20,000 bases of DNA, taken from the IMG/VR virus record IMGVR_UViG_3300026521_000001; one strand, 5' to 3'. Under the pieces are notes generated by a model. It saw only the letters and a list, made by a program, of their open reading frames with translations. It ran no database searches and was not told the DNA's origin. The DNA comes from an uncultured virus (IMG/VR IMGVR_UViG_3300026521_000001) (taxonomy: Duplodnaviria > Heunggongvirae > Uroviricota > Caudoviricetes). Below are positions 1,693 through 20,000 of this stretch, piece after piece; the first letter of the stretch is position 1, and each line of letters begins with the position of its first letter. A program made the position numbers and the translations under genes.

Positions 1693-1693
1693 A

Positions 1694-4600
1694 TTAATAA
1701 CTAAATAATCTATTTATCCTACTAAATGGATCCATTAGATTTTCTGCTTCGTCAAAGAAATGAATTTGTCTAGCTGCTATTAAATCAGTAGGAGTGTGAG
1801 TATATGTTTCATATATTTCAGGAACATCTATTAATAATTCATTTATACTACCAAGTTTAGCTACACCTAAAGGTTTCATTTTTATAGTATTTTTTATTAC
1901 TTTTACTGTTCCAAGTAAAAATTTACTAAACATAAACATACCAGTATCATTAGCATATTTTAAATATTCATTCTGGTTCAAGTTGTAATTAATAAAGTAT
2001 TGATCGGCTAATAATAAAGCCTCTTTTTCAGATTTATGTTCTTTTAGAATATAATAATCCATCAATGTTTTCTTAGCTACAACATCTCCATATTGCATTA
2101 TTTTTAATGCTTTTTTAAATAAAGCTGTATCTTCTGTAATAAATAAGGTTTTTACTATACTTTGTGCTTCTGGTTTTAATTTAGATATGTATTTTTTTTC
2201 TATAAAATTAGATATTAAATTAGTATCATTTATATTAGATATAGTAGCATCTTCAATAATTGAACCAACAATACCGCTTTCTACTAATGAATTTAATTTA
2301 TTTTTACTAATAGAGTTTCTTAAATGTTTTAATTTAATTCTTTCTTTAGTAGTAATAATCTTTGCTTTTTCTTTAGATTCTAACTTTCTCATTTCATTAT
2401 ATTCTTTATTTAATTTATCGTACTCAATCCAGTTCTTCTTCATTTCTCTAAACACTTTTTCTATAGGCATATATTGAGATAATACCCAAAAGTTAGACAT
2501 CAAGTTTCCTAATAATACTGCACCATTAGCAATTACCATAAGTGGTTTAACTAATTTAATAAAATCTTTCCATAATTTTTCAAATAATTGAATTTTTCTT
2601 CTTATTTTATTTATATTTTTATTTGTAACATTTTTTAATAACCAGTGATTATATAAAGTTGGATCTTTATACCCCATAGTATTTTTTATTAAATGTGTTG
2701 GTATAGGTAATAATTTATTTCCTAAATATTCTTTAGTAGCTTTAGGTAATATAGCATATAAATCTGGATTAAGTATTTCTCCTGATACTGGATCAACTCC
2801 TATATATGTATATAAATGAGGTTTACTTCTATCCCATGAACCAAGAAAATAATCTATTAATTGTTTATTAATTTCAGTACCATTTATTTTTAAAAACATA
2901 TGTGATTGAGTATTAGATATTACACTTCTTATATCTAAATCATGATTATTTAATTCTGCTTCATGGTCTTTTCTTAAAACATATCTATAATCAACTACTT
3001 CTCCATCTTCATTATACAAAGGAACTACTTTAGTTTCTTTTCTCTCTTTCAATTCTTCAGCTACTTCTTTAGGATTAAAATTTTCATTAGTGTTAATTAC
3101 TGATAATTTATTCTTTATATTTTTAAGTATTTCTTCTCTATATTTTTCTGGATTATCAATATATTCATCACTTAATTTTAATCCCATAGTTGATTGATTA
3201 GTAATTTCAAATGCTCCCTTAGTATAAGCTGGTTCTGTATTTAATCTTTTCATTACATAACTTGTACCAATAGTATTTTTTAATAATCCATTTTCTCCAT
3301 TTATAGTATAATCTACTTCCCACCCATGTGATTTATATAGTTCTAATTTAGAAGCATCTATAACTGCAGACTCATATAAAGATTTACTTTTAGGTTTTAT
3401 ATAACCTTTTATTACATGGACTGGATTAGGGAATAAAGTAAGAGTATCTTTTTTTATAGTATTTCTTATATATTTAATCATCTTAGAGAAGTTTTCTTCA
3501 TCTTCTTCAACATAAGTAATTAATACTTCTAAAGATTTTCCATCTAAATAGTTTATTGAATATAGAGTAGCTAATTCATCTATCTCTTTACTTAAATCTT
3601 CTGTTATATGTCTATCTGATTCTTCTAAAATAAATAACTGTTTAGCTATACCATTAGCATTTAGTTGTAAATGTTCTACTGTAACTTCTCCTGTAAGCAT
3701 ATAATAAGCTAATGCTTTAGTCTGATTTATCATTGCTCTACCATAAGGATGCTCCATTATTCTTTTTTCTAATATTGCTATTCTATTGTCTCTTGCAGGT
3801 TTAACTAATATATATCTTTTTAGTCTATTAATAGGAATAATTGCCAAATCTGTCATTAATATAGCTTTAGTTAATCTTTTTAGTTTATTAGGTGTCTTTA
3901 AACTATCAGGAAGTAAACTGTCTAATAATTCTATATTAGCTGATTCTTGTTGCATTCTTACAGTTTCTTGCATATGTTTTATTTTATTATATAATTCATA
4001 GAATTTAGAATCTAATATATTATCTCTAAACATTTCATTATAAACATCTCTTATTAAACCAGCAATATCTAAATTGAATCTCGCTATAGCTTTAGCATTT
4101 TCTTTAGCTATTCTTGCTAACATTTCTGGATCTTTAACTTTATCTTCTATATGTTTTAAAGTATTATCTACTCCTTGCATAACTAATTTTACAGAACTTT
4201 TAACTCCATTTAATATTTCTTTTACACCTTTTAATTTATTTAGTTCTCTAAATAATTGAGCTATTTTTAATTTTTCTAATAAAGGCGTCTCAGAATAAGT
4301 ATTATTAGCCATTTTTTCAGTTAATAATATAGCAGTAGCAAATATATCATTTAGTTCTTTAGAAGCAGGTTTTTTAGTCATATTCATTATAATTTGATTA
4401 AAAGCTTTAATCACTAAATCTAATAATCTTTCAATACCATTTTTAGGTATTATACCTTCTATTTCAAGATTAGACACTTTAATGTCATTATTTTTTATAT
4501 AATTATTTAAAATATTATTTGTAGTAGCAATAGTAAAAAACTCTTCTGGATCTCCTTTTATATATCTATACATTTCCTTAGATTGTCTTTTAGCTTCGTC

Positions 4601-6076
4601 GGTATGTTCTACACCTATAGGAATAAAAAATGTCTCAGGATCGATTTCTGGATTATTATCAAGGTGTTTTATCACAGCTTGTTGTAATTGTAATAATCTG
4701 GTTCTTAATTTAGCATCTACAGATAAGGCTGTGTGTGTCATTAAGTGAGTCATTTCATGTAGAAATATTTCTTTTTCTGTTTGAAGAGATAATTTAGAAC
4801 CAGAAGATAATCTAATTAATGTTTTTTCTAATACAGCTGAACCACGATTAAAAGTTTTATTTATATAAGTTATTACTTTTAGTTTTTCTCCTACTTTAAA
4901 TATAGTCTTAATTCCTTTAGATACTTTTTCTAATATAGATTTTTCAGTAGGGGTCATAGTTTCATCTAAAGTAGCTAAGAAATCTTTAACATCTTCTTCT
5001 GTTTCAAGTAATATTTCTTCTTGTTTAGTTCCCATTGATTTAACCCAAGAAGATCCCATTTCTTTATTATTATATTTTACATGTGATACACCTTTGATAC
5101 TATATGTCCTTGTTTGTTCTTTACCTTTTATAGTATATGTATTTATTCCTCTTTCTATTTTTGGAGCTACTTTTTTAATAATTTTAAAAGGTAATTTAAT
5201 TAATTCAGAATGATTTACTTCACTTAATTTATTAGTTTTTAAATTAATAATTTTATATATATTTTTACTATAATCTACTATTATTCCTATTACTGATTTA
5301 TTATTTTTAGTATTTATTTTAATTACTGAACCAGGAGATATAGTATTAATATCTTCTTTTATTTTTTTCTTTTTAAATCTTTCTAATCTTTTTAATAATT
5401 TTATTTTATCTGATTTATCTATGTTTTGGGCAAAGTCTATTTTAGCTGGATCATCTATATCAGGATTATCTTCTATAGGAATTATTCTTAAATATTTCAT
5501 TACATTGTCGTCTGTAAGGCTTAAATCATAAGGAGCCCTTTTTAAAAATGCTTCTTTAAATGACATACCTTCTTCTTCCATAAAATACTCTACCATAGGT
5601 TCATGTAACCAATAATAATATTCATCAGTACCTTTTTCAGGTACTTTAGGTTTACTATTTATCATATAATCTACTTGTTTAAAATCAATAGTATAAGGTT
5701 TATTATTTATAAATACTAATAATGCTTTATGCGATACTTTTCTAATTTCATAACTATCTGTTTTTACAGCTGTAGATATACTTAATCTATAATGCTCATA
5801 TTTAGTATTTTTAAAAATATGAGATAATATATCAGTAACTGATATACATGAACTTCCATCACATAGTTTAGCAGCATCAATTAAATCATCTATATATTTA
5901 TATGATAAAATTCTATCTTTTAAAATTTGTACATTATTATCTTGTATATTAGTGGTAGGATTCGTTACATCTGTAATAAAACTATCTGTATTATAGTCTA
6001 TAAGTTCTTTTTTAGCTTTATTGAAAGCAGTTTTTACTATTTTTAATTGATTATTACTTATACTACATTTACTCAT
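1694..6076 (-). CDS. Stand-alone C-terminal part of an N4-like virion RNA polymerase, with zincin-like HExxH domain (1460 aa)
   Basis: IFLHEMTHLMT (H440-E441-H444, nt 4745-4759) followed by PEEFFTIATTN. The C-terminal QYGDVVAKKTLMD...EAL...QYFINYN...YANDTGMFMFSKF...KPL resembles the N4 gp50 C-terminus as recalled (EYSDFIAKAIIYD...EAL...EEFINYD...MGLMWFYNF). Own AAGGA RBS. Confidence 0.85.
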   Translation of the reverse strand: MSKCSISNNQLKIVKTAFNKAKKELIDYNTDSFITDVTNPTTNIQDNNVQILKDRILSYKYIDDLIDAAKLCDGSSCISVTDILSHIFKNTKYEHYRLSISTAVKTDSYEIRKVSHKALLVFINNKPYTIDFKQVDYMINSKPKVPEKGTDEYYYWLHEPMVEYFMEEEGMSFKEAFLKRAPYDLSLTDDNVMKYLRIIPIEDNPDIDDPAKIDFAQNIDKSDKIKLLKRLERFKKKKIKEDINTISPGSVIKINTKNNKSVIGIIVDYSKNIYKIINLKTNKLSEVNHSELIKLPFKIIKKVAPKIERGINTYTIKGKEQTRTYSIKGVSHVKYNNKEMGSSWVKSMGTKQEEILLETEEDVKDFLATLDETMTPTEKSILEKVSKGIKTIFKVGEKLKVITYINKTFNRGSAVLEKTLIRLSSGSKLSLQTEKEIFLHEMTHLMTHTALSVDAKLRTRLLQLQQAVIKHLDNNPEIDPETFFIPIGVEHTDEAKRQSKEMYRYIKGDPEEFFTIATTNNILNNYIKNNDIKVSNLEIEGIIPKNGIERLLDLVIKAFNQIIMNMTKKPASKELNDIFATAILLTEKMANNTYSETPLLEKLKIAQLFRELNKLKGVKEILNGVKSSVKLVMQGVDNTLKHIEDKVKDPEMLARIAKENAKAIARFNLDIAGLIRDVYNEMFRDNILDSKFYELYNKIKHMQETVRMQQESANIELLDSLLPDSLKTPNKLKRLTKAILMTDLAIIPINRLKRYILVKPARDNRIAILEKRIMEHPYGRAMINQTKALAYYMLTGEVTVEHLQLNANGIAKQLFILEESDRHITEDLSKEIDELATLYSINYLDGKSLEVLITYVEEDEENFSKMIKYIRNTIKKDTLTLFPNPVHVIKGYIKPKSKSLYESAVIDASKLELYKSHGWEVDYTINGENGLLKNTIGTSYVMKRLNTEPAYTKGAFEITNQSTMGLKLSDEYIDNPEKYREEILKNIKNKLSVINTNENFNPKEVAEELKERKETKVVPLYNEDGEVVDYRYVLRKDHEAELNNHDLDIRSVISNTQSHMFLKINGTEINKQLIDYFLGSWDRSKPHLYTYIGVDPVSGEILNPDLYAILPKATKEYLGNKLLPIPTHLIKNTMGYKDPTLYNHWLLKNVTNKNINKIRRKIQLFEKLWKDFIKLVKPLMVIANGAVLLGNLMSNFWVLSQYMPIEKVFREMKKNWIEYDKLNKEYNEMRKLESKEKAKIITTKERIKLKHLRNSISKNKLNSLVESGIVGSIIEDATISNINDTNLISNFIEKKYISKLKPEAQSIVKTLFITEDTALFKKALKIMQYGDVVAKKTLMDYYILKEHKSEKEALLLADQYFINYNLNQNEYLKYANDTGMFMFSKFLLGTVKVIKNTIKMKPLGVAKLGSINELLIDVPEIYETYTHTPTDLIAARQIHFFDEAENLMDPFSRINRLFSY

Positions 6077-6100
6077 TTGTATCCTTTGTTTTTTAACATT

Positions 6101-9100
6101 TTAACATAAATTATTATATTCTATAGATTCTATTTCATCTAAAGGTATATTATGCATCATACTAAAATAATGTAATTTTTCACTTAATTTATGTATATAT
6201 TCTTTAGATAATTTTTTTTCATCCTGTTCAAACATTGACTCTGTAACTGCAAACATTCTATCTTGGTCATATTGAGAAAATTCTACAATAGATACTTTTT
6301 CCTTTTTTAATGCTTCATTAGTAATTAACATAAATCCTTTCTTATTTTCTTGTAATTTCTTGTATATATTACTTTTTACTACATTTGGTGTTGGAGTACT
6401 ATCAAAGTTTTTTCCTGTTAAATCTAAAAGGTCTTCTATACTCATTGCTTCAAGTTTTGTAACTAATTCAGGGGAAAATATTTTATCATGATATATCCAT
6501 TGTCTGAGTATATTAGGATCTAAATTTATTAATAAATCAGCTAAATCTTCTGTTAGTTCAGTGTATTTATACTGTTTATTTTTATTACTCAGTTTTTTGT
6601 AGATTACTTCTTTTAAGGGTTGCCAGGTATCACTTCTAATATCATCTCCTGTTTCATCAATATAATAAGAACCCCCTTCTAATAAATCACTTGTAGAAGG
6701 GATATCATCCATATTTTTAGTAGCTGTTACATAAACAAATTTATTTGCATTTTTATTTGTCTCTTTTGGTTCAATTCCAAATACTACCATATCATTTCTG
6801 TTATCTACATCCATAACATATAACTCTGTATCTTTTTGTTTAACAGCATTTATTATATTAGTAAAGAATAATATACCTTCTTCTGTTAAATTATCTTTAT
6901 TTCTCTCTACAAAGTCAGGGTCATAAGTTTTTTTTGTTGTACGTGTTAAACCTGTTACAGTTATAAAACTTCCATCCTTTAATTCTAAAGCACTTAAAGA
7001 ACCTGCTTCTTTCATTACAGTTTCTGTATCCATTACAAAGAAATGTGGATTAGTACCATCATATATAGTAGTAGTTGATACTTGCTGTTGCTCTTCTTGT
7101 TGTGTTTGTTGATTGTTGTTGAATGTTTCTGCTATATATAATGCACCTATTGATGCTTTAATATCACTCATTTTTTTCATAAATTCAGAAGAATAATCTT
7201 TCCCATTTTTTAATGTATCAAATCTTGCTCCTTGTGATGGGACATAAGTAACTTCAATATTTTTATCTGTTATAATTTTTATATAATCTGATTTATATTT
7301 ATCACTTATAACATTAAAATTAACATCCATATATTCAATATTTTGTATATTTCCAAAATTTTTTATAAATTCATTTGCAAATTCTTGTCTTTTTTGTAAT
7401 AGAACATTTGTAACATTAAATATATTATTTTGTTCTTGTGGTTCTTCTTTTTTATTAAATCTATCTTCAAATGCTTGTTTATGGAAAATATCATAGTTAT
7501 TATGTACTTTTTTATATTCATTTGGTTGTAAATTATATTTTTCTTTTAATTTATTAAATTCTTCTTCTGTAACTCTGAAAGCATAATTATTAGTTCCTAA
7601 TACTTTAGCTGGTATATTATTATTTATAGCAGCTATAATACCAGCCTCATCAATACCTGTTTGACCCCCACTTCTAATTAAATGAATTTTTATACCATTA
7701 TTTAATAGTTCTTCTATAAGTTTAGTTAAATATTTATTTAATGTATCTTGATTTGTTTGATTAAAACTATATATACCATTACCTGCTATATTTAATTCAA
7801 TGCTATCTTTACCTAATGCTTTTATTTTTTCTACTAAGTTGTTAATAACTGACTTTGTTAATTTAATATTACCGTCTTGAATATTAATAGGTAAATATAA
7901 TTTACCATTCTGATTAACAGCTTTCTTTGTTAATTTTTCTCCAGGAGTATTAAAATCAGTAGCTATTGCAATAGTTACATCAGCATTAGCATTTGTTCTT
8001 GTTCTATCAGCATAATTATTGTTATTGATTGTTTCAATACTAACATTTTCCGATAAAGTATTATTATTATTATTATTATTTAAAGATTTATTATTTCTAT
8101 TATTATAATACCAGTGTCTAAAGTCTTTAAATCCTTGATTATCTCCTGCTTTATTAGCTGTTTTTTTATAAAAATTACTCTTCTCCTTATGTTCTTTATC
8201 AAATAGATTATATTTCAAGAAATCATATAAAGCATTTTTAAAATGTTCATCTTCAGACATTCCATACTTATCAGTAATTTCAATTACTAAATCTTTTAAA
8301 TTATCTATTTCAGTATCTTGTAATATTTTATGTAAAATTTTACTTATTTTAGGTAAATTAGCTAATACATTAAGTAATCCGTCTCCAGCATTTTTACTAT
8401 CTATATATGGAGTTAAATTTAAATAATTATCCATTATAGTATTTGCTTCTTCTTCACTTATATTTAATTTATCTGGATCCAGAGTATTAAATAAATTATC
8501 TAATATAACTTTTATATCTTTTAATTTAAATTGAGAATCAACACTATCAGTAATATAGTTATGTAATACTGTTATATCATAGTTTTCTAATATGTCTCTT
8601 ACTTTATCTTTGGCTGTATTTAAAGCTTCTCCATCTGTTAAATCTTTGATACTTTTTTCAATAGTAAATAATATATCTCCTAAAGAAGAAAATACATTAC
8701 TAATAGTCTTTTCATCTATTTTAGATATTTTATTAAAGTCTAAACTACCATCTTTATTTAAAGCACTATATATTTTAGATTTTAATTCTAATAAAGGTCT
8801 TAAATTGCCTACATTATTTATATGTTTAGCTGTTTCTTCATTTTTTAGTAAAGCACCTATTTTAGATAACATTGCTAAGTAAGTATTATAGTTAAAATGA
8901 TTATTTAATAAAGCTTCATTATAATCTTTAATAATAGAATTATTAGAATTATCTACTCCAAATAATAAGGCATCAAATATATGCATTGCTTTATATAAAT
9001 TATCATTTACTAAGAGTGAATCTACTATAGTTTTACTGTCTATCTGATGTGCTAATATAGGACCAATAGCAGGTAAATTTTCAATAAAGAAATCTACTTT

Positions 9101-12100
9101 CTCATCTATAGTATCTTTACCTTTATTATTTCCCGTAGTGATTCCTATTTTATTTCCTGTAGCATCTTTTTCTGTTTTTTCAGAAGTCATATTACCACCA
9201 TCAAATACAGATGGAATATCATACCAAATACCATCATCAATCATTGACTTAATTACTTCTTTTATCTGGTTTCTTGTATATTTCCCCATAGATGAAAATC
9301 TGTATTCAGCTAATGCTACTTGATCCAGAGAAGATAATTTAGTTTGTTCTTCTTTAGATAAGAATTTACTTTCTAATCTCTCAAAGAATACTGGTATAGT
9401 AATATTAAAAGCTAATTTGCTTAAATCTTGATTTAATGCAGTAAATTCATCTAAAAATCTAAAATTAGTTTTAAATGCCATTTGTAATAATTTACCTACT
9501 GCATTTTTAAATACTTTCGTAAAATAATCTTCTGTATGTCCTTTCCTTATCTCTACCATATCTAAAGGTAAATCAATAAAATCATCTACTGTAGTATCTA
9601 TTTCTCCATCTTTAACAGGTTTATTTAATTCTTTATCTAATTCTGCTTTACCTGTAATTTCGTTTAATTTATAGGCAGCAAATGCTTTTTTAACTCTTTC
9701 TTTAAGTATATAAGCATTATCTTTATTAGCACTTATATCTATATGTTCTACATCTTTTCTATATTTATACCCTCTTGGATCTGCGTCATAACCAGATAAT
9801 AATTCATTTTCTTTTACATTCAATATATCTCTTACTGTGTTTACTATTTTTTTAAATATTTCTATATATTCTTTTTTATCTTCTTCACTTAAATCTTTTA
9901 ATTTATCAGATATTTTACTAATATCATTATCAAACATATAACGAAGTAAATTTCTTAATGTTATATCTTTTTTACCTAACTTATTCATATCTTTATAGAA
10001 TTTATCTATAAACATGGTGTTATATAATTTTTTAATAATTGCTGCAACAGAAGCACCATAAGTTTTTACCATCATTGCTGGTTTAACTTCTTTTCTTTTA
10101 AAAGCAAAGTTACCATTATCATCTTTAAAATTATTTAGTAAATTATTTATAGCATTAAGAATAACATTATTATCAGTAGGTTTTACTTTATCTTGCCAGT
10201 ATAAAGAATCAGAATCAGCAGTTAATTGCCATCTATTATTGATATTATTATTTGCCATGTAATCACTTATACTTTCTTTGTCTTTTTTATTTAATTCTTC
10301 ATCTTTTTTTAATTTACCATTTTTATTGAACCAGTCAGGTTTAACATCTCCTAACCTCCTTTTGGTACCACTTACCGATTCAGTAAATTCAGGAGTCTTT
10401 GCTTGATCATTAATATATGTTGCTAACGAATTATAGAAATCTTTAAATAATTCATTTTTTTGTAACTCTCCATGAGTTAATTTTCCTTCTTCTTGTAGTT
10501 TTTTATATTCTTTTATCATATCCATTATTTTATCTGGAGGTGTATGTTCTAAACCAAACATATCAATATCTGTAAATATATTATCTTCACTTGGGTTTTT
10601 AGGAGTTATATACACTCCTCCTTTAGCTAATTTATTAAGAATCTTTTGTTTCACAGCCTCAAATGATGCTGCAAAGCCATATCTATCCATTTCATCATAA
10701 GTAGGATTATATTTACCAGAGAATAAAATATTCATAATAGTAATAATCATACCAGAAGTAATAGCATCAGACTCTATAGATAACTCTGTTTCAAACTCTG
10801 TTAATTTAGGATTATTATCTATAGCTTTGACTAAATAATATATTTCATTTAGTGCTTGTAATGCATGTAAATTTTCACCTTTATTCACAAAGTCAGAAAT
10901 AATATCAGTATCTTTTTTAGTGTAATTATCTTCTATTATATTAGATATTGCTTCAAATACAGGTCTAAATTCGTCTGTTATTGAATAAGTCCAACGATCT
11001 AATATTTTTGTAAAATTTATATATTTTTCATTTAATTCACTTATCATATCATTATCTGTTTTCTTATCTGGATCCATATCAAATGCTTGTGCTATTGCTA
11101 AATGAAATAAATCTAAAGCATTATTATTTGTCATATCTAATATAATAGAACCAGTATTCTTTATTTTAACTAAAAATCTATGTACTTTATTATCTTGTGG
11201 ATTGATAGAACTATCCATCATTGTTCTCATATTTTTAGCCATGAACCAGGCAGTTTTAAATCCTTGTTTAATTAAATCAGAAAACATTCTGGTGTATTTA
11301 AGTCTTCTTTTTAAATCTTCATTATTAGAAATTACAGAATTTCTTTGTGTTATATGTACTTCGTTTTCATTTTCTACACCTACCATTGCTTCTTGAGTTT
11401 CTTCATCTAATTTCATGAATAAGTCAAATGTTCTATTTGCTGTGTATATTACTTCATTTGATTCTTTAGTTACAAAACCCATACCTTCATCAGGTAGTTC
11501 AGTAGCTTCAGTACCCTTAATAGTTTCATTTGGAATATATTCATCTTTAGCTTTTATAGGAACAGTCTGTTCATGGTCAAATTTAAGTATTTGAGACATC
11601 ATACTATTCATCATAGAAAAAGTAGTATTTACTCTATCTTTAATATCTTCTATTTTACCTTCTGGTTCAATATTTTTATTAATTTCTAATTTATATAGAT
11701 TATATTGTTTTCTGGTACCATCTCCTGTAAAATCTTCATTTACAGTAGTTTTTACTACTTTAAAATAACCATCTTTATTATTACTTTTAGTACTTTCTAT
11801 AGATACTTTTTCTACTAAATTTAACACAAACATACCTAAAGCTAATTGTGTATCTTCTTTAAAACTTATAGGAACATCATCTGTCCATTTGTATCCTAAC
11901 TCATTATAAACTAATTGTCCTATATCTTTAGCTAATTCATATTTAGGTAACCCATTTTCTTTAATTATATTAAGCATTTTAGTTATTTGACTTTCATCTG
12001 AATTACTATTAAGGAAATCTCTTTCATCTTTATACCCCATCATTTTAATTACTTTAAGTCTATCAACAAATTCATATCCATTTAAAATACTTAATACATT

Positions 12101-12922
12101 AGGCATTAAAGCCTCTATAGTAGAAGCTACTAAAGGATGTAATATATTTTTATCATTTACTTTTTTAGTAAAAGGTAAAAGAAAAGCATCTAAAATATCT
12201 CCTGTTATATATTTATCTTTTCCCTTTATTTTCGCTTTTAAAGTACCATCTTTTATTTCTACTGGTTCAATGTTAGAATTTATAGTTTTATATAAAATAG
12301 TGTACCATAGACTCTTATTATTAGTTAAACCATAACCATATTGAAAATCTTTTATTTTTTCTTTTAAAAAATCTAAATTATCAATAAATTTTTTAAATTC
12401 TTGAGTTTCTGTTATATTAAATTCTTTCCAAGAATCTATAATATGTGGAACCAGATAATTAGATAAATAACTTACATAGCCTTGTTGTTTAATATGAGAT
12501 ATTGAACCAGCTAAAAAAGAAGTATTTAATAGTTTAACTGTTAACTTATCATGTGTATCTTCATTGATAGAAGCAGTATTTTCTCTATGTATATTTGCTC
12601 CTATAGGGTTTATTTTAACAAGAGTTTTATATGCTTTATTTAATTTATTTAGTTTAGTCTTTGCTTTTTTTAAATGTTCTCTTTTTAAAGTTTTTATCTC
12701 ATTTCCTAATTTGATAGAATCTGTAATATAAAGATTTTTTTCTTTATTTATTTTTACTAATTCTTCTCCTAAAAGATTTCTTTTAGTATCTATTTTACTT
12801 TTAATTTTATCTGCTTTAGCTACTTGTTTTTTAATAGTTTGTATATCTTTTTCTATATACTTAATGTTATTATCAAGTCTATATTTTAGTTTTTTTACTT
12901 TAGCATTACATGATTTTCCCAT
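6101..12922 (-). CDS. Catalytic part of an N4-like virion RNA polymerase (single-subunit T7/Pol A fold) with C-terminal SLOG and unknown modules (2273 aa)
   Basis: Motifs in the expected order: MAKNMRTMM..INPQDNKVHR (R566), motif A LSIESDAITSG (D719, nt 10766-10768), LAKGGVY, KDFY, motif B RKEVKPAMMVKTYG (R943/K947/Y955; Rx3Kx7YG), motif C MHIFDAL (D1317, nt 8972-8974). Own AAGGA RBS. Confidence 0.92.
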   Translation of the reverse strand: MGKSCNAKVKKLKYRLDNNIKYIEKDIQTIKKQVAKADKIKSKIDTKRNLLGEELVKINKEKNLYITDSIKLGNEIKTLKREHLKKAKTKLNKLNKAYKTLVKINPIGANIHRENTASINEDTHDKLTVKLLNTSFLAGSISHIKQQGYVSYLSNYLVPHIIDSWKEFNITETQEFKKFIDNLDFLKEKIKDFQYGYGLTNNKSLWYTILYKTINSNIEPVEIKDGTLKAKIKGKDKYITGDILDAFLLPFTKKVNDKNILHPLVASTIEALMPNVLSILNGYEFVDRLKVIKMMGYKDERDFLNSNSDESQITKMLNIIKENGLPKYELAKDIGQLVYNELGYKWTDDVPISFKEDTQLALGMFVLNLVEKVSIESTKSNNKDGYFKVVKTTVNEDFTGDGTRKQYNLYKLEINKNIEPEGKIEDIKDRVNTTFSMMNSMMSQILKFDHEQTVPIKAKDEYIPNETIKGTEATELPDEGMGFVTKESNEVIYTANRTFDLFMKLDEETQEAMVGVENENEVHITQRNSVISNNEDLKRRLKYTRMFSDLIKQGFKTAWFMAKNMRTMMDSSINPQDNKVHRFLVKIKNTGSIILDMTNNNALDLFHLAIAQAFDMDPDKKTDNDMISELNEKYINFTKILDRWTYSITDEFRPVFEAISNIIEDNYTKKDTDIISDFVNKGENLHALQALNEIYYLVKAIDNNPKLTEFETELSIESDAITSGMIITIMNILFSGKYNPTYDEMDRYGFAASFEAVKQKILNKLAKGGVYITPKNPSEDNIFTDIDMFGLEHTPPDKIMDMIKEYKKLQEEGKLTHGELQKNELFKDFYNSLATYINDQAKTPEFTESVSGTKRRLGDVKPDWFNKNGKLKKDEELNKKDKESISDYMANNNINNRWQLTADSDSLYWQDKVKPTDNNVILNAINNLLNNFKDDNGNFAFKRKEVKPAMMVKTYGASVAAIIKKLYNTMFIDKFYKDMNKLGKKDITLRNLLRYMFDNDISKISDKLKDLSEEDKKEYIEIFKKIVNTVRDILNVKENELLSGYDADPRGYKYRKDVEHIDISANKDNAYILKERVKKAFAAYKLNEITGKAELDKELNKPVKDGEIDTTVDDFIDLPLDMVEIRKGHTEDYFTKVFKNAVGKLLQMAFKTNFRFLDEFTALNQDLSKLAFNITIPVFFERLESKFLSKEEQTKLSSLDQVALAEYRFSSMGKYTRNQIKEVIKSMIDDGIWYDIPSVFDGGNMTSEKTEKDATGNKIGITTGNNKGKDTIDEKVDFFIENLPAIGPILAHQIDSKTIVDSLLVNDNLYKAMHIFDALLFGVDNSNNSIIKDYNEALLNNHFNYNTYLAMLSKIGALLKNEETAKHINNVGNLRPLLELKSKIYSALNKDGSLDFNKISKIDEKTISNVFSSLGDILFTIEKSIKDLTDGEALNTAKDKVRDILENYDITVLHNYITDSVDSQFKLKDIKVILDNLFNTLDPDKLNISEEEANTIMDNYLNLTPYIDSKNAGDGLLNVLANLPKISKILHKILQDTEIDNLKDLVIEITDKYGMSEDEHFKNALYDFLKYNLFDKEHKEKSNFYKKTANKAGDNQGFKDFRHWYYNNRNNKSLNNNNNNNTLSENVSIETINNNNYADRTRTNANADVTIAIATDFNTPGEKLTKKAVNQNGKLYLPINIQDGNIKLTKSVINNLVEKIKALGKDSIELNIAGNGIYSFNQTNQDTLNKYLTKLIEELLNNGIKIHLIRSGGQTGIDEAGIIAAINNNIPAKVLGTNNYAFRVTEEEFNKLKEKYNLQPNEYKKVHNNYDIFHKQAFEDRFNKKEEPQEQNNIFNVTNVLLQKRQEFANEFIKNFGNIQNIEYMDVNFNVISDKYKSDYIKIITDKNIEVTYVPSQGARFDTLKNGKDYSSEFMKKMSDIKASIGALYIAETFNNNQQTQQEEQQQVSTTTIYDGTNPHFFVMDTETVMKEAGSLSALELKDGSFITVTGLTRTTKKTYDPDFVERNKDNLTEEGILFFTNIINAVKQKDTELYVMDVDNRNDMVVFGIEPKETNKNANKFVYVTATKNMDDIPSTSDLLEGGSYYIDETGDDIRSDTWQPLKEVIYKKLSNKNKQYKYTELTEDLADLLINLDPNILRQWIYHDKIFSPELVTKLEAMSIEDLLDLTGKNFDSTPTPNVVKSNIYKKLQENKKGFMLITNEALKKEKVSIVEFSQYDQDRMFAVTESMFEQDEKKLSKEYIHKLSEKLHYFSMMHNIPLDEIESIEYNNLC
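7570..8030 (-). other. SLOG (YpsA/PF12694-related) domain embedded in the polymerase chain, circularly permuted
   Basis: YADRTRTNANADVTIAIATDFNTPGEKLT...LNIAGNG...IRSGGQTGIDEAGIIAA..NIP are characteristic SLOG motifs; bounded by a poly-Asn linker and a Gln/Glu linker. Confidence 0.85.
8060..8080. repeat. (ATT)7 microsatellite encoding a poly-Asn linker
   Basis: attattattattattattatt, in frame as AAT x7 in the 2273-aa ORF, immediately before the SLOG domain. Confidence 0.9.
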
Positions 12923-12935
12923 AGTATATTATCCT

Positions 12936-15900
12936 TTATTTACATATATTTTCAATTTCTTTTCTTATTATATCAAAGTATTTTTCTGTCTCTTCTAAAT
13001 TTTTAATTATAGTATTTGGATTACTTTTACCAATTATACTTTTTTTAGTCTTATCAATTTGTTTAACTAAGGTCGCTAATGTTTTATCTGGTATCCCAGC
13101 ATCCAGTAATTCTCTACCATTATTTAATATATTCTCTTTTAAATTATTTAAACCGTGTGTATCTCTTTCATAATTATTAGATATATTAGTAATTATTTTA
13201 TCTATAGAGTTTTGTACTTTTTTATAACTATTAGATAATTTATCTATAGTACTTTTTATTTTTATAGATTCTTTATTTTTATTTTTTCTATATCCTCTGT
13301 TCATTTCTAATTGTTGTTCTTTCAATTTAATCTTATTACTTATAATATTTACATCTTTTAATACTTTTTCTACATTAGATACAAACTTTTTAATAGAAGT
13401 ATTTCTAATAACTATATCTTCAGATTCTGTGATTTCAGCTAAGTTATTTATATCATTTATAATATCTGTATCTGCTAATTTAACAGATTTATCTAAATCA
13501 GATATATAATCTCCCTCTATATCAGTTATATCTACTTCATCTAATACAGAGTCTTTGAAATCAGACATATTTTCAGATTGCACAGTACTTTCTGGAGATT
13601 CTGGTTTAACATAAATATCTTTATATGCCCTATTAAATCTGGCTCTTAAAGTTTGAAAGAATCTAAGTTGCTCATTTTTATCTTTAGAAGCTAGATATTT
13701 TAATATATCTTCATTATTTACTGAATCTGTAACCCATAATATTTTACTGTCTACTATTTGTTTTTCTGTTAAAGGTCCTTCACTTTTATTTAACATATGC
13801 TCTATTTTATCAAACATCATATCTACAGCATCATAGTCATAAATAAAATTACCTAATTGCTCATGTATAAATTCTCTCTTATCTTCAATAGCACTTAATA
13901 AATCTGCAATTAACTGTCCTATACTATTATCTATGTCACCACCACTATTAACTTTTTCTTTTAACCATTCAGGAGTTTTAGATTTCTTAGGTTTTTTAGG
14001 AGGGGTACCTGTATTATCTTTAGGTGTAAATGTAGAACTAGAAGAATTATTACTATTATTACTATTATTATTACTATTATTTGAAGTATTAGTATTTGTA
14101 GATATTCTTTTTAATAACTCTTGTAAATTACTAATATCTTCATCTGATAAATTACCATACATATCATCGGTAGGACTCGATATAATAGTTTTATCATTAA
14201 ATTCATACATATTAGTTAAAACATTATTATAGAAATCTTGGAATAATTTAGATACTTCTTCTCTTTCAGTTTCATCTAAATCCTCAGCATTTATAAAGTT
14301 TAAACTAAATTGATCACTTACCCCTTTACTTCCATCTGGTTCAAAGTTAGAAGGCATTACATTCTTTATAGTAACTTCCTTAGTATCTGGATTATATTCC
14401 ACATTTACTTGTATTAAATTACTTTTACCTACTTTCATTATAATAGAATCAGTACGAGTACCAGTAGTCTGTCCTTCTTGTTGTGATACATCTTCAGAAT
14501 TAACTAAAATACTAAATAACTTACTTTTATTATCAATTAATCTTTTTATAGTTGATAAAATATCTTCTTTATTCTGTGTAAGTTTAAAAGAACCAGTAAG
14601 ATACATATTAGTTATAAATTCTACTATATCAGGATTATTTTTTATATTAACATCAGTATCTGTAGAATCATCTCCCCTATTTTCTATCTGTTTATCACTT
14701 TGTAATTTATCTAAATTATCTTTGTTAGTAATTATACTTCTACCGTTAGAAATATCTTTTATAGAAGTAATAGTAATATTATTATATTTGTCATTTATAG
14801 TACCTTTAATTTCGTATAATTTACCGTTTTGGTTTTTAGTTATAGTAAAAAAGTAATCGCCATTATCAGCTTTAGCAAAGTTTTTAACATTATATGATTG
14901 TATATTTTTACCATCTATAACACCATTAATTAGATTAGTAAATATATGATTTAGGTTTAGGCCAAAAGAATTAACTCCTTTAGTTAAATGTATTTTAGCT
15001 TTTTTACTACTATCTTTTTTATTAGATGCATTACTTTTACCTTTTGAACCAGATTTAGAAGAGTTATTATATTTTGGAGGTGTATATAAATCTCTTATAT
15101 CATTAGCATTATTTAGAGTATTTAGAAAATCTAAATCTCCTGCAATTTCTAAAGCTTTTGGTAGGTTATCTCCATTCTGGTTCATATGTTTAAATAGATT
15201 GAAATATGCTTGTGCTATAGCTATAGGATTGTTTCTATTTGCTGTAATTTCTTGGTTATAAACTACTTCTTTACCTTCATTATTTATGAGAGTTACTCCA
15301 ATATAGTGCTTACCCTCCTTAGTATATAGTACAGGAAGTAATCTATACAAGTGTTTTAATTTCTCTAATTCTTCTTGTTTTACTTTATCTATTATATTTA
15401 ATCCTGAATTTTCTCTTTCTAAAGCATCTATTCTTTCTTTAATTACTTTTCTAAAATCACTATTTTCTGTTAATATAGCATTGACTACATCTAAACTTAT
15501 TTTATTTTTATGAATTGCTCGTGCAAATTGTTCTAATTTATTTTTAGCTCTTGATACAGTAAATCTAATTAAATTTTCATTATTTTCTCTTAAACTTTGT
15601 TCTGTTACTGGTTCAATAATTTCGTCAGTATTTGGATCTAAAGATAATTTATCATTATATGTTTTATAATCTGCTAATGCTTTTTTAGTATTAGAAAGAC
15701 CTTTAGTATATATATCTTCAGCTACATCTAAATAGTTTTTCTTAAAATCTTTATAAGTTTTATTTTCAAATATAGCTTTTACTATATCTTCATCAAATAG
15801 AGATTTTAGACTATCTTGTAAAGTTTTAAATTCATTCTCATTTAATACTGATCCTTGTTCTTTACTTGAAGTTTTATATATAAAAGCTTTCATTTGTTCT

Positions 15901-18005
15901 AATACTGATTTATAAGTAGTATAAGTATTTTCGTCCATATTAGAAGATATATTATCAGTCATTTCCTTAACAGCTTGATTTTTATTTTTATATTTAGCAT
16001 TTAGACCTATAGCATATAACGAAGCTGCTTCTTTTTTTAATTTAGTTTTAATACTATCTTCTATATTCATAGAATTTATTTCATTTATAGCATTTACATA
16101 ACTATTAAAAGTATTAGTATCCATAGAAGTAAAAGGTTTAAATATATTATCACGAATAACTTCTTTAGAATAATTATTTAACCCTAACATATCGGTAAAG
16201 TTAGTAACCCTATCTTGTGCAGTAATCTCTGCTTGCTTTAATCCTTTTTTGTACTTATATTTATCTACATAATATTTAGTTGCTGCTAAACCAACTATAG
16301 ATCCTGCGCCAGATGCAGTACCTGCCATTATTGCAGGAGAGTGTAACAATGCACCACTTAACGATACTGGGTTTAATGCTGCATGTGTAAATGAACCAGA
16401 AGTACCACCTATAGCAGAAGCATTTAGATATTGACTTAAAGGACCTACTTGTCCTTTAGTTATATAATCTTGTTGTAATTGATCCAAAGGTTCTTGTATA
16501 GCTTCCCCTGCAAAAGCCTTAGTTAAGTTAAATACCTCTCCTCCTACTTTTTTACCAACAAGTAATGCAGGAGAAAGTCCTTTAGCTATTAAAGGAGCTT
16601 TACCATCAATTACGTTTAATAAATGTGAGCCAGAAGAAACTAAATCTTTACCTGCTTTTTCTATAATAGCAGCTTCTCCAAACATTCTATCCATGGCTAA
16701 TACACTAGTATTTAAGAACATTGATAATTGTGTTTTAGCAGCTAATTTAACAGGATCTTTAATTAAACTTGGGTCATTTTGTATAGCTGTATATATATCG
16801 GCATTAGTTCGTTGGAATGCTGATGATACTATACCTCCTGGTAAAAATAATTGTAAAGTTTCCCCTGAAGAGTTAACGACATTACCTAATAATGATTTAA
16901 TATCTGCTTGTGCAAATATAGCATCTGTATAGTTATTTAAAGTATTTTGGTTTACTCCTTGAGCTAACATTCCCGAATAAGCATTATGTACATCTGTATA
17001 TCTTGATAAGGCTTTAGCACTTTTGCCCATATAGAAATTATCATACATTTCTTTAAGTTGCTTTTTCTTTTCTGGATTAGAGAATTTTTCAAAGTGTTCA
17101 AGCATAGCTTTTTCAAAGCCTTCTGCATCACTTCTACCGAAAAAAGCATCAGTATAACTACTTAAATTTCTTAATGCTAAGTTACCTATAGCAGCCCATA
17201 GTTCATATGTATTATTAAAATGATTTGCTACATTTGCAGCAAAACCTTGCATTGCATCTCTTGAATTATACATATATTTTTTTAAAATACTATCAGTCTT
17301 ATCAGCGTCTGTTTTATTATAAGCATTCATTTGTGCTAAATATAAATTATCATGATTAGCTAATTCCCCAGGACCTTGTACTCCGCCTTGTAAGTAAGTT
17401 GCTTCTAATACAGCAGGGTCAGTCATTACTTTCTGGTTTTTATGTTGTATTTCTCTTAATTGTCCTGTTTCTGGATCAATATAAGGAAGGACATAATTTT
17501 TATTTATATTTACATCTGAACCAGTAAAAGCAGTATTATATACTGTACTAAACATTTTATAAGCATATTGTCCGCTATCTGTATTTAAATCAAATAAATT
17601 CTGAGGTAATGTTTTAAGTTTTACTTTTAATTTTTTTAAAGTAGATCTTTCATTTAAAGGTATATTTTCATATGAACCATATTTATCTATTAATGAAGAA
17701 TATGTAGTTTTATATTCATGTGCAGTATCCATTATATATGAATATGCTACATCAGCATTATACATTAAATCTCTTTTTTTATCTGGATCTACCACATCAG
17801 TAATTGCTTGTTTAAATGGATTACTTTCAGGAGTATTCATTAAAGTACCTTCCCCCATATCAGAGTAAGTACTTTTAGTTTCCTGCAACCATTGTGGTGT
17901 AGTAAATGAAGTATCATTTTGTATAGGAGTATTAATTGAAGAATATACATCTTTTATTTCTATACCATTATCAGTATTAATATTTTTAAGTGCTTCTTGT
18001 AACAT
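12936..18005 (-). CDS. N-terminal part of an N4-like virion RNA polymerase / ejection protein (1689 aa)
   Basis: Lies between the gp51-like gene and the polymerase core. AFAGEAIQEPLDQLQQD followed by a Gly/Ala-rich apolar stretch resembles the N4 gp50 N-terminal domain as recalled (AGETVEEGVQGATGQLAQN...GALYG). One Cys only; AAGGAG RBS. Confidence 0.7.
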   Translation of the reverse strand: MLQEALKNINTDNGIEIKDVYSSINTPIQNDTSFTTPQWLQETKSTYSDMGEGTLMNTPESNPFKQAITDVVDPDKKRDLMYNADVAYSYIMDTAHEYKTTYSSLIDKYGSYENIPLNERSTLKKLKVKLKTLPQNLFDLNTDSGQYAYKMFSTVYNTAFTGSDVNINKNYVLPYIDPETGQLREIQHKNQKVMTDPAVLEATYLQGGVQGPGELANHDNLYLAQMNAYNKTDADKTDSILKKYMYNSRDAMQGFAANVANHFNNTYELWAAIGNLALRNLSSYTDAFFGRSDAEGFEKAMLEHFEKFSNPEKKKQLKEMYDNFYMGKSAKALSRYTDVHNAYSGMLAQGVNQNTLNNYTDAIFAQADIKSLLGNVVNSSGETLQLFLPGGIVSSAFQRTNADIYTAIQNDPSLIKDPVKLAAKTQLSMFLNTSVLAMDRMFGEAAIIEKAGKDLVSSGSHLLNVIDGKAPLIAKGLSPALLVGKKVGGEVFNLTKAFAGEAIQEPLDQLQQDYITKGQVGPLSQYLNASAIGGTSGSFTHAALNPVSLSGALLHSPAIMAGTASGAGSIVGLAATKYYVDKYKYKKGLKQAEITAQDRVTNFTDMLGLNNYSKEVIRDNIFKPFTSMDTNTFNSYVNAINEINSMNIEDSIKTKLKKEAASLYAIGLNAKYKNKNQAVKEMTDNISSNMDENTYTTYKSVLEQMKAFIYKTSSKEQGSVLNENEFKTLQDSLKSLFDEDIVKAIFENKTYKDFKKNYLDVAEDIYTKGLSNTKKALADYKTYNDKLSLDPNTDEIIEPVTEQSLRENNENLIRFTVSRAKNKLEQFARAIHKNKISLDVVNAILTENSDFRKVIKERIDALERENSGLNIIDKVKQEELEKLKHLYRLLPVLYTKEGKHYIGVTLINNEGKEVVYNQEITANRNNPIAIAQAYFNLFKHMNQNGDNLPKALEIAGDLDFLNTLNNANDIRDLYTPPKYNNSSKSGSKGKSNASNKKDSSKKAKIHLTKGVNSFGLNLNHIFTNLINGVIDGKNIQSYNVKNFAKADNGDYFFTITKNQNGKLYEIKGTINDKYNNITITSIKDISNGRSIITNKDNLDKLQSDKQIENRGDDSTDTDVNIKNNPDIVEFITNMYLTGSFKLTQNKEDILSTIKRLIDNKSKLFSILVNSEDVSQQEGQTTGTRTDSIIMKVGKSNLIQVNVEYNPDTKEVTIKNVMPSNFEPDGSKGVSDQFSLNFINAEDLDETEREEVSKLFQDFYNNVLTNMYEFNDKTIISSPTDDMYGNLSDEDISNLQELLKRISTNTNTSNNSNNNSNNSNNSSSSTFTPKDNTGTPPKKPKKSKTPEWLKEKVNSGGDIDNSIGQLIADLLSAIEDKREFIHEQLGNFIYDYDAVDMMFDKIEHMLNKSEGPLTEKQIVDSKILWVTDSVNNEDILKYLASKDKNEQLRFFQTLRARFNRAYKDIYVKPESPESTVQSENMSDFKDSVLDEVDITDIEGDYISDLDKSVKLADTDIINDINNLAEITESEDIVIRNTSIKKFVSNVEKVLKDVNIISNKIKLKEQQLEMNRGYRKNKNKESIKIKSTIDKLSNSYKKVQNSIDKIITNISNNYERDTHGLNNLKENILNNGRELLDAGIPDKTLATLVKQIDKTKKSIIGKSNPNTIIKNLEETEKYFDIIRKEIENICK
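14046..14081. repeat. Imperfect (ATT/ACT)n repeat encoding an Asn/Ser linker
   Basis: attattactattattactattattattactattatt encodes NNSNNNSNNSNN, followed by a Pro/Lys-rich stretch. Confidence 0.85.
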
Positions 18006-18016
18006 ACATACTCCTT

Positions 18017-19456
18017 TTATTTAAAAAATATATTAGATATAGTACTAATATTATTAGCAGTATCTTTACCAAATCCAAAATTACCAAATATTGGAGCATC
18101 AGAAGTTAGGGATTTGTATATAGGTCCTTGAACATTTGTAAATTGTTCATAAGTTTTATGCTTAATTTCATTAGTGTCTATATTAGGTAATTTATCTACA
18201 TTACTATTTACTACATTTATAGCTGCTAAAAGTAAACTATTATGAGAAGCACCACTATTATTATTTACTTCATCCCAAATATTAGTACCTTTAGTGTCCC
18301 AATATATGTTAGAATCTACATCTTTAATAGTTCTTACACCATTAAACATACCATCTCGTACAGCTACTGTTTTATCTATCAAATCTTTAGCTATATTTAC
18401 AGGTATTCCTTTATATTTAAATGCATCAATTAATTGTTTTTCACCTTCAGCTAATTTAAATTTATCAGGAGAAGTATAATGTTTTTTAAAGTTTGGATCT
18501 TTAGACATAACAATTAAATCATTATAATTAACTTTTTTAGCTGCTATCATATCTTGTAAAGATAATCCCCCTGAATTATAATTATAGTTTTTAATACCTA
18601 AAGTGCTATCATTACCTATTTTAATATGAGACCCTTTAGGTAAATTTAAAGAATCAACTAATTTAGGAAGTAAACTATCCACAATTTTCATATCATAAGA
18701 TATTATTTTTTCTCCTGTATCAGGATTAATATGTTGAGTAGGAGATATACCAAGTTGATCTAAAAGTTGTAATGCTTTAGGGGTAACATTTCCTGAATCA
18801 TCTATAAAACCAAGGCGTTTACCATTATGTAATTTACTATATGTTTCTTCTATATTAGATAAAGATGATCTTAATTTTTTATTATCTGCAGAAGCTCCTA
18901 AAAATGAATTAGTAAGTGATTGCGCTGTTTTAACACTTCTAACGTTAGTAGAATTACTACCACCAGAAGAAAATGATTTTCCGCCAAATTTACTATTAAA
19001 AGGAATGTCATTATCTTTATAAAATTGTAACATGTCTTCCATATTTTGCATATTTGATTCGTTAGTTAATTCTAACATTGCTTTTTTAGTAGCTAATTGT
19101 ATTCCAGGAGTTAATGCTTGTAATATACCTTTATTTTCTTGATTTATTCTATCTATATTATCACTAACATTTTTGTCTACTTTATTATAAAATGAAGTAT
19201 TTATATTATTTATATTAGTATCATAAGATTTTAAAGCATTACTCATACTAGAATATTTATCTTTAGTAGCTGTAGCCTCTTTATTAAAGACTTCACCTAC
19301 AGCTCTTGCTTCATCTTTACCTGTTCGAGCCAGAGCCTCAGAAGCAGTAGATACATTTCTACTTGCCTGGTTCAATGAATTTAATAGCCCTGCTGTATTT
19401 ACTGTTTGATTAATATCATTAGCACTAAATATATTTTGAATTTTTCCACTAATCAT
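18017..19456 (-). CDS. Putative internal virion/ejection protein (N4 gp51 position), ~479 aa
   Basis: GGAGG RBS 8 nt before the ATG at 19456 favours this start over 19471. Cys-free, helical N-terminus, directly upstream of the vRNAP parts. Assignment is by synteny, not clear sequence similarity. Confidence 0.6.
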   Translation of the reverse strand: MISGKIQNIFSANDINQTVNTAGLLNSLNQASRNVSTASEALARTGKDEARAVGEVFNKEATATKDKYSSMSNALKSYDTNINNINTSFYNKVDKNVSDNIDRINQENKGILQALTPGIQLATKKAMLELTNESNMQNMEDMLQFYKDNDIPFNSKFGGKSFSSGGSNSTNVRSVKTAQSLTNSFLGASADNKKLRSSLSNIEETYSKLHNGKRLGFIDDSGNVTPKALQLLDQLGISPTQHINPDTGEKIISYDMKIVDSLLPKLVDSLNLPKGSHIKIGNDSTLGIKNYNYNSGGLSLQDMIAAKKVNYNDLIVMSKDPNFKKHYTSPDKFKLAEGEKQLIDAFKYKGIPVNIAKDLIDKTVAVRDGMFNGVRTIKDVDSNIYWDTKGTNIWDEVNNNSGASHNSLLLAAINVVNSNVDKLPNIDTNEIKHKTYEQFTNVQGPIYKSLTSDAPIFGNFGFGKDTANNISTISNIFFK

Positions 19457-19457
19457 T

Positions 19458-20000
19458 TTAATTACCTCCATATGAAGCTGTAAGTTGATCTCTTAAAGCT
19501 GATTTTCTATTATATTCATCTTTCTGCACGTCCAATGACCATTGTTTAGCACCTAATTCCCAATCAGTTATTTTTTTATTGTAATCAAACTGTTCTCTTT
19601 GGAAATCTAAATTAGCTTGTTGTATTTCTTTAGACCAGTCAAATTGTTCTCTTTGGAAGTCCATATTCTTCTGATATAATCCCATTTGATCATTCCATTG
19701 ATTTTGAGCAAAGTTTTGTTGTTGATTAAATACATCTTTTTGGAATTGTAGATTTTTATTATATTGATCATGTTGCCAGTCTATATTATTTTTCAATAAA
19801 TTATATTTTTGTTGTGATGCATTATTAGTTAAAGACATCATATTTTTAAATGCATCAGATAAAAAGTTACTACTATTATAATCAGTGTAATTACTATTTA
19901 ATGAAGTACTACTTGGAGATTTAAAACTGTTATCAGTATTAAATACTACATCGTTAGATCCAGGTAATGTAGTACCTAAATAATTGGATGGGTTACTATT
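19458..20000 (-). CDS. Putative small ejection protein (N4 gp52-like), 5'-truncated by the window edge
   Basis: The frame is open from 20000 (NSNPSNYLGTTLPGSNDVVF...SDAFKNMMSL), so the start lies outside the window or at 19841. Ser/Asn-rich N-part, then a Gln/aromatic coiled coil (NLQFQKDVFNQQ), ending ASYGGN; Cys-free. Confidence 0.6.
   Translation of the reverse strand, partial: NSNPSNYLGTTLPGSNDVVFNTDNSFKSPSSTSLNSNYTDYNSSNFLSDAFKNMMSLTNNASQQKYNLLKNNIDWQHDQYNKNLQFQKDVFNQQQNFAQNQWNDQMGLYQKNMDFQREQFDWSKEIQQANLDFQREQFDYNKKITDWELGAKQWSLDVQKDEYNRKSALRDQLTASYGGN
19585..19658. repeat. Intragenic direct repeat, 54-nt period
   Basis: tcaaaYtgttctctttggaa at 19585 and 19639 (1 mismatch in 20), encoding DFQREQFD twice, 18 aa apart. 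Confidence 0.85.

Follow-up and report, generated by a model that had tools for sequence, protein, structure and literature searches.

How does a phage deliver a giant ejected enzyme that it makes in several pieces? Ejected phage proteins are believed to avoid cysteine altogether, and the packaging and threading of 3500 residues or more through a channel of about 30–35 Å is an open question. The window analysed here is a 20,000-nucleotide stretch of an uncultured caudovirus (IMG/VR record IMGVR_UViG_3300026521_000001; G+C content 24%). Its virion RNA polymerase (vRNAP) is encoded by three consecutive giant open reading frames (ORFs) on the minus strand, labelled A, B and C, and the few cysteines of these pieces lie mostly at the ends that face one another. 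Comparison with related loci establishes that this placement is a general rule of split vRNAPs and not chance. The rule, together with a disulfide described between two ejection proteins of a cyanophage, suggests that the pieces are probably stapled head to tail by inter-chain disulfides in the virion.

Cysteines at the facing ends of a three-piece polymerase

Piece A (12936..18005, minus strand; 1689 aa) is the first in the order of translation. By its position it is assigned as the piece that carries the N-terminal domain (NTD) of the split vRNAP. Its sole cysteine is the penultimate residue, Cys1688 (...ENICK*, TGT codon at 12942..12944, minus strand). A spacer of 13 nt (12923..12935, minus strand), with a Shine–Dalgarno-like AAGGA, separates A from the ATG of piece B, which is read in a different frame. 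Piece B (6101..12922, minus strand; 2273 aa) is the polymerase piece, with cysteines solely at residue 5 (MGKSC, TGT codon at 12908..12910, minus strand) and at its last residue, Cys2273 (...NNLC*, TGT codon at 6104..6106, minus strand). The second spacer, of 24 nt (6077..6100, minus strand), also holds a Shine–Dalgarno-like AAGGA before the ATG of piece C; it is in frame with both B and C and contains no further stop. Piece C (1694..6076, minus strand; 1460 aa) carries the C-terminal domain (CTD) and has Cys4 (MSKC, TGT codon at 6065..6067, minus strand) close to its start, as well as an extra CxxxxC pair, Cys72 and Cys77 (5846..5863, minus strand). This pair occurs in none of the relatives of C, each of which has a single N-terminal cysteine or one or two other internal ones. 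It could form an internal disulfide or be part of a four-cysteine site at the new B|C junction.

The assignment to the vRNAP family comes from B and C. Residues 301–776 of B (10595..12022, minus strand) match the RNA polymerase domain of phrog_2206, ‘virion RNA polymerase’ (E 2.6e-48, profile positions 1060–1496), and align by BLASTP to residues 1413–1593 of N4 gp50. Residues 352–1420 of C (1817..5023, minus strand) match the C-terminal domain of the same family (E 2.5e-93, profile positions 2259–3368) and share 47% identity with residues 1903–3031 of P0005, a database relative. The N4 vRNAP consists of three globular units, NTD, RNAP and CTD, on flexible linkers (PMC13434306), and the window splits fall between units of this type, at the linkers.

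Altogether A, B and C hold six cysteines in 5422 aa, and four of the six lie no more than five residues from a junction-facing terminus, one at each of the four. Neither A nor B has a cysteine in its interior. Base composition would lead one to expect approximately 36 cysteines in A, 47 in B and 29 in C, compared with the 1, 2 and 3 observed, and the probability of finding at least four of six cysteines among the 24 positions that make up the outermost six residues at the four facing termini is 5.7e-9. The initial annotation of this DNA had reported these coordinates and counts, and every one of them was reproduced on recount; the positional enrichment that it proposed to measure is the probability just given. 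It had also described the outer ends and the neighbouring gp51- and gp52-like ORFs as lacking cysteine, and none was counted in the two ORFs concerned. Finally, it had described the N4 vRNAP as a cysteine-free single chain, in agreement with the N4 sequences, in which gp50 (3500 aa), gp51 and gp52 contain no cysteine.

The three ORFs each have their own start and stop and do not form one polypeptide of approximately 3500 aa. A Logan assembly of the probable source run agrees: it contains a 43.5-kb contig at a depth of 26.6 that reproduces both junctions with no differences. This contig and the window come from one sample, so the agreement does not count as independent support.

Terminal cysteines as a rule of split vRNAPs

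A HMMER search with residues 1–1200 of C as the query returned 451 relatives, the best 150 of which were analysed. Among these 150, 56 carry a cysteine within the first seven residues, most of them pieces of 1150–2000 aa. The cysteine stands at position 3 in 37 of them, at position 4 in ten, at position 5 in six, at position 6 in two and at position 7 in one, and it is the sole cysteine of the protein in 52 of the 56. The hits of at least 3000 aa without an N-terminal cysteine number 57, of which 54 have no cysteine at all, the 57 together having 8 cysteines in 202,784 residues. Another 19 of the best 150 are short hits without an N-terminal cysteine.

Genomic context was obtained by scanning IMG/VR with an alignment of 41 pieces, which gave 80 loci. 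The protein is full-length in 27 of these, and 26 of the 27 contain no cysteine; 26 loci encode pieces starting with M-x(1-4)-C; and at 24 loci the CTD-bearing ORF is cut at its 5′ end by the end of the contig. The remaining three (L034, L037 and L078) encode pieces without an N-terminal cysteine, and their breaks, which consist of overlapping frames or runs of N, have the appearance of assembly errors. The contig encoding P0005 and two further split loci came from a second scan.

Walking upstream from each cysteine-tipped piece to its partner revealed 35 junctions, in the window and 28 other loci, with a cysteine on both sides. On the upstream piece the cysteine lies 0–5 residues from the C terminus, one residue from it at 19 of the 35 junctions, and the next residue is lysine in 25; on the downstream piece it lies at position 3–6. 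Six systems consist of three pieces with two cysteine pairs each. None of the complete outer termini carries a cysteine; in L008 a seeming exception is located ahead of the true ATG. Interior cysteines are nearly absent, being limited to Cys72 and Cys77 of C in the window, one in L020 and one in L084. The placement is kept even where the surrounding sequence is not: no alignment can be made between the C-terminal 160 aa of A and the counterparts in L082, L084 and L085, yet all four pieces end in a cysteine motif. The terminal position of these cysteines is thus a general rule, not chance. Conservation in homologous split loci and absence from unsplit vRNAPs, the two comparisons named in the initial annotation, both bear out its proposal, the former at the 35 junctions and the latter in 26 of 27 full-length loci and 54 of 57 long database hits, which are free of cysteine.

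One of these loci belongs to a cultured phage. Alteromonas phage vB_AmaP_AD45-P1 has a split vRNAP whose stop was re-sequenced by PCR; gels of the phage showed both polypeptides, at 270 and 175 kDa (PMC3821669, Bacteriophage 2013). Its 2481-aa piece ends in ...HCKQ* and its 1409-aa piece starts with MTIC, with one cysteine each (L007/L086). Like the window, AD45-P1 is N4-related, with a vRNAP cut between polymerase and CTD and terminal cysteines that face each other; it differs in having two pieces where the window has three, and its CTD falls in a different clade, so that it is only distant kin of the window’s phage. Its authors took the cysteines as evidence against injection and did not comment on where they lie (PMC3821669). 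The same text gives two cysteines in the larger ORF, a count that fits a longer ORF call including a cysteine upstream of the ATG. In RefSeq the locus (1606–13288 of NC_021532) carries a misc_feature, ‘potential frameshift’, and no coding sequence.

That label, and the error-like breaks at L034, L037 and L078, are what could be said for regarding the splits as assembly errors and the cysteines as coincidental. The error-like breaks are precisely those that lack cysteines, the window junctions were recovered by a second assembler at the depth given above, the AD45-P1 stop codon was confirmed by PCR (PMC3821669), and the enrichment in the window alone has the very small probability stated earlier. 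We regard an artefact as exceedingly improbable.

Unsplit members of the family show the other side of the rule. N4 gp50 and gp71 of Pseudomonas phage DEV share with the window a homologous polymerase and CTD, a giant gene that follows two small cysteine-free ORFs, and strong suppression of cysteine; they differ in forming one cysteine-free chain of 3400–3500 aa, as against three chains totalling 5422 aa in the window, with paired terminal cysteines and an inserted SLOG domain. Cysteine suppression in this operon has been documented over 191 Schitoviridae and ascribed to passage through the periplasm (PMC11445570). Packaging and ejection into the host have been shown for N4 and in part for AD45-P1 (PMC3821669), and the phage of the window is known from its sequence alone.

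The facing cysteine codons could instead be signals at the level of translation, with read-through, frameshifting or a hop like that of T4 gene 60 joining the ORFs and the codons acting as take-off and landing sites. Several features of the window fit such recoding: all four terminal cysteine codons are TGT, and B and C share one frame with a single TAA between them and no further stop. A 2023 survey suggested read-through and concatenated such ORFs (PMC10654107). The wider family argues against it. In L066, L070 and L072 other ORFs intervene, and the partners are separated by 3511, 2416 and 1830 nt, respectively; the distant partner in L070 is a true vRNAP NTD (phrog_2206, E 4e-17). All three relative frames occur (at 7, 9 and 19 junctions), the two cysteine codons are identical at 22 of the 35 junctions when approximately 24 would be expected from the TGT/TGC marginals, and the distance from cysteine to stop varies from 0 to 5 codons. 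Every downstream piece has an ATG 2–5 codons ahead of its cysteine, and this ATG often forms a TAATG or ATGA overlap, as is typical where initiation is coupled; RNA folding of both window junctions revealed no structure (z-scores 0.65 and 0.36); and AD45-P1 yields two polypeptides (PMC3821669). Distant partners, the use of all frames and unmatched codons together exclude read-through and ribosome hopping, and recoding as a whole is very improbable.

Two specific mechanisms were considered and rejected. T4 gene 60 bypass and split inteins resemble the vRNAP loci in that one functional protein arises from an interrupted coding sequence with cysteine flanking the break; the window has neither a take-off hairpin nor a Hint domain, and the family requires no adjacency and places only 2–5 residues before the downstream cysteine. 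For bypass of the gene 60 type, the codons match in the window but the match across the family does not exceed chance, there is no hairpin, and partners lie up to 3.5 kb apart. For a split intein, searches of A, B and C gave no Pfam intein or Hint hit, and in the window only 3–4 residues precede the downstream cysteine. In a scan for promoters and terminators, sites were not in excess and the junctions held no terminator. The Glu/Gly-Cys-Lys ending that is common in the family partly encodes the ribosome-binding site of the next gene (for example, AAGGAG before TGT AAG TAATG); the cysteine also persists where the genes neither overlap nor adjoin.

The unrelated ORFs that separate the cysteine-tipped NTD and polymerase pieces lie at 2851–4722 in L070, 3630–4934 in L072 and 2353–5007 in L066. 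One of them encodes 623 aa with three cysteines and belongs to no PHROG family, and another is a member of phrog_8198.

A disulfide precedent and the possible role of the pairs

A bond between facing terminal cysteines has been seen in another setting. In the virion cryo-EM structure of the pre-ejectosome of cyanophage A4, Cys1715 of gp27 forms a disulfide with Cys5 of gp26 (PMC12002296, PNAS 2025), and the C-terminal helix of gp27 is docked in gp26 and locked there by the bond (PMC12002296). In the genome of this Anabaena phage, A-4L, gp27 is 1717 aa long and its single cysteine, Cys1715 (...NPCQF*), lies two residues from the end; gp26 begins 5 nt later and has a single cysteine at position 5 (MSKHC). 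Both cysteines are kept in all four relatives checked (Pf-WMP3, Pf-WMP4, LPP-1 and TR020; 23–27% identity). The likeness to the window is that of consecutive genes for large packaged ejection proteins with facing terminal cysteines, and the positions correspond closely: residue 1688 of 1689 in A and 2273 of 2273 in B on the upstream side, and residues 5 of B and 4 of C on the downstream side. The difference is that the A4 proteins have no known polymerase domain, and that the A4 work concerns one bond in one phage, no rule being stated in the available part of the report (PMC12002296). A phmmer comparison of A4 gp26 and gp27 with the vRNAP pieces gave no hit, hhalign gave a probability of 0.2%, and the proteins belong to PHROGs 19395 and 33290, not 2206. 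As far as can be judged from sequence, then, the window would work like the A4 clasp without being a member of that group by descent, and since homology between the two is undetectable, A4 represents the same solution in a pair of ejection proteins that is unrelated or has diverged beyond recognition. Another A-4L ejection protein, gp28 (25321–28497 of L087), has exactly two cysteines, at positions 1036 and 1039 of 1058, in a CxxC close to its C terminus, which may be another terminal thiol feature of an ejection protein; gp29 has none.

By analogy with A4, Cys1688 of A and Cys5 of B, and likewise Cys2273 of B and Cys4 of C, probably pair as inter-chain disulfides, so that the virion would contain the pieces stapled head to tail. 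The initial annotation had put forward such a head-to-tail re-joining, and the 35 conserved junctions, the cysteine-free unsplit vRNAPs and the A4 disulfide all speak in its favour. In outline, the vRNAP would be translated as three chains, each from its own ribosome-binding site and start codon, and the two terminal disulfides would turn these into one unbranched chain of approximately 5400 residues in the virion. The pieces may dock non-covalently in the reducing cytoplasm, with the bonds closing once the particle is outside the cell. Cysteines at the extreme ends would give the whole a thread-like topology and keep the chain unbranched, so that ordered passage through a narrow tail channel of some 30–35 Å would be possible; being already paired, they would not be targets of periplasmic thiol oxidases, and the host cytoplasm would reduce the bonds. 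Exit as a single thread and reductive release, both part of the initial annotation’s proposal, are inferred.

Thiols so placed might instead act without tethering the pieces, as a redox sensor, as an attachment to another virion component or in a transient assembly intermediate, with the pieces travelling separately. No cross-link has been seen in a vRNAP, and the gels of AD45-P1 show two separate bands (the available text of the report states no gel conditions; PMC3821669). Yet the cysteines occur in facing pairs at 35 junctions, the one exception being L047, where the upstream DNA is short and no partner was found; outer termini never carry them; the pair arises together with a new split, as at the B|C junction of the window compared with the fused relatives P0005–P0009; and the A4 cysteines are bonded to each other (PMC12002296). 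Separate travel therefore seems unlikely to us. The initial annotation had raised metal bridging as an alternative, in which the terminal thiols would join the chains through a zinc, copper or iron ion and form no disulfide. The B/C junction does offer exactly four cysteines (Cys2273 of B and Cys4, Cys72 and Cys77 of C), but the other 34 of the 35 junctions offer two cysteines only, without conserved His, Asp or Cys nearby and with varying N-terminal residues, Cys72 and Cys77 are found in no relative, and the A4 density was built as a disulfide (PMC12002296). A metal clasp is accordingly quite improbable.

Several observations weigh against a disulfide staple. No vRNAP disulfide has been seen directly; its chemistry is borrowed from a pair with no detectable homology. 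As assembly takes place in the reducing cytoplasm, recruitment to the capsid cannot be due to the bond. Hydrothermal vent metagenome is the label of the probable source run, and the habitat may be sulfidic or reducing; virions of crAss001, a phage of gut Bacteroides, nonetheless carry structural disulfides (PMC10172136). Among the best 150 database relatives, 18 of mid length (1150–2999 aa) lack an N-terminal cysteine, and some could be real cysteine-free splits, although most adjoin a close full-length relative in the tree and so may be truncated. These 18 include P0041, P0044 and P0010, and the last of them, a CTD-bearing and cysteine-free protein of 1766 aa that is a possible exception, gave no locus in a search of IMG/VR. 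L020 and L084 both contain a single additional internal cysteine that is unpaired, and no partner for the piece of L047 was found within 4.9 kb upstream. Many of the 35 junctions also share ancestry, L002 and L003 being identical at the junction.

Three consequences follow from so strict a rule. That each break is flanked by one cysteine per side, and that cysteine is otherwise absent, indicates that split vRNAPs are real and functional and not the frameshift artefacts that databases label them as. The rule predicts a specific covalent link. It would also imply that the capsid can release the pieces only when joined in one unbranched chain, a constraint on any model of ejection. For annotation, the terminal-cysteine signature allows true splits to be recognised and non-adjacent pieces to be paired. 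What is already in print is the A4 disulfide, as a single structural detail, and the split vRNAP genes of AD45-P1; separation of the vRNAP was called rare in the 2023 survey (PMC10654107). Our literature searches found no paper describing terminal cysteine pairs at vRNAP splits, in line with the initial annotation, to which no such description for N4-like phages was known.

A broader interpretation is possible, although we put it forward as doubtful. The cysteine pair may have arisen convergently to take the place of a peptide bond, with the difference that reduction can cleave it, and may permit cuts in giant ejected proteins at domain linkers, relocation of pieces, insertion of cargo and ordered delivery as a single thread. 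The staples might then open on arrival and free the polymerase from the CTD, acting as an arrival sensor that switches on transcription, and the four-cysteine B|C junction (residues 2273 of B and 4, 72 and 77 of C) could be an intermediate form, either a disulfide-exchange relay or a metal site. The N4 vRNAP is held in an auto-inhibited state by its CTD (PMC13492108).

Origin of the second split and the domains around it

There is no close relative of the window among isolated phages. Megablast against phage records gave no match, tblastn gave only matches of 20–24% identity, and a scan of IMG/VR with C alone gave none; in a word-based protein search, the sole match to C was P0004, and a query with the C-terminal 600 aa of A returned nothing but itself. 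In the five closest relatives, P0005–P0009 (33–45% identity), B and C are fused into proteins of 2464–3295 aa with no cysteine at the fusion point, and all five keep the N-terminal cysteine. For two of the five an upstream NTD piece ending in a cysteine motif was located, GCK* for P0005 (L082) and RCE* for P0009 (L084).

In a FastTree phylogeny of the last 700 aa of 132 proteins, whose long branches and type of support call for caution, C is sister to P0005 (support 99), inside the fused group. Because C is nested among fused relatives, the B|C split of the window and its cysteine pair are derived. Across the tree at least seven changes between the split-with-cysteine and unsplit states are required, gains and losses being indistinguishable. 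B and C share a frame, with a single TAA and 24 nt without a stop between them (6077–6103), while the closest relatives are fused, and the B|C split looks recent. The features particular to the window are its three-piece form, the derived second split and the extra CxxxxC pair.

The phage is present in one further sample. An RNA library (X2) made for a separate study and labelled as a biofilm metagenome yielded at least eight short contigs scattered over 1630–17346 of the window with 0–1 differences, and such near-identity places the same phage there. None of these contigs spans a junction, so they neither confirm nor dispute the stops, and RNA cannot be told from carried-over DNA in them.

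Piece A has no family match in Pfam and PHROG searches; its one similarity is a weak match of 143 aa to the NTD piece of L082. It occupies the same position as the NTD pieces of L082 and L084, which likewise end in a cysteine motif. A single-sequence model of its last 300 aa is all-helical, with a helix reaching the cysteine (mean pLDDT 59.6), a weak hint of a likeness to the C-terminal helix of A4 gp27. The corresponding AlphaFold2 single-sequence model of residues 1–340 of C (mean pLDDT 36.6) is unusable for judging the proximity of Cys4, Cys72 and Cys77.

Between the polymerase and C-terminal domains, B contains an inserted SLOG domain of the cpYpsA type (residues 1623–1714; 7781..8056, minus strand; PF12694, E 5e-08, above the gathering score), with a match to phrog_10774 over residues 1628–1784. 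The linker between polymerase and CTD holds a different inserted domain in each relative: where the window has SLOG, P0007 and P0008 both carry DUF7831, at 1637–1749 in P0007, and the insertions of P0008 lie at 1571–1667 and 1911–2024. P0008 also has a match to a 2OG-Fe(II) oxygenase below the gathering score. From these sequence matches the vRNAP appears to be a carrier for injected cargo domains.

Inside the C-terminal domain match, C has an HExxH motif at residues 440–444 (4745..4759, minus strand). This motif, near the start of the CTD, is nearly invariant in the 41 split pieces (H283, E284 and H287 of P0004) and is present at residue 2228 of N4 gp50. It resembles a metal site of the zincin type and matches the ‘zinc-binding motif’ noted for DEV gp71.

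Directly upstream of A lies a cysteine-free ORF of 484 aa (18017..19471, minus strand), a gp51 counterpart by position and without a family match; L082 has a cysteine-free ORF of 503 aa in the equivalent place. Next to it, an ORF of 127 aa (19458..19841, minus strand), or 180 aa if read to the end of the window, also lacks cysteine and is a gp52 counterpart by position only. At the other end, three plus-strand ORFs at 1–1335 contain no cysteine. One of them, of 87 aa (1072–1335, plus strand), lies on the opposite strand just past the end of C; it matches DUF6378 (PF19905, E 2.3e-08) as well as several PHROGs, and phosphofructokinase is the label of two of these.

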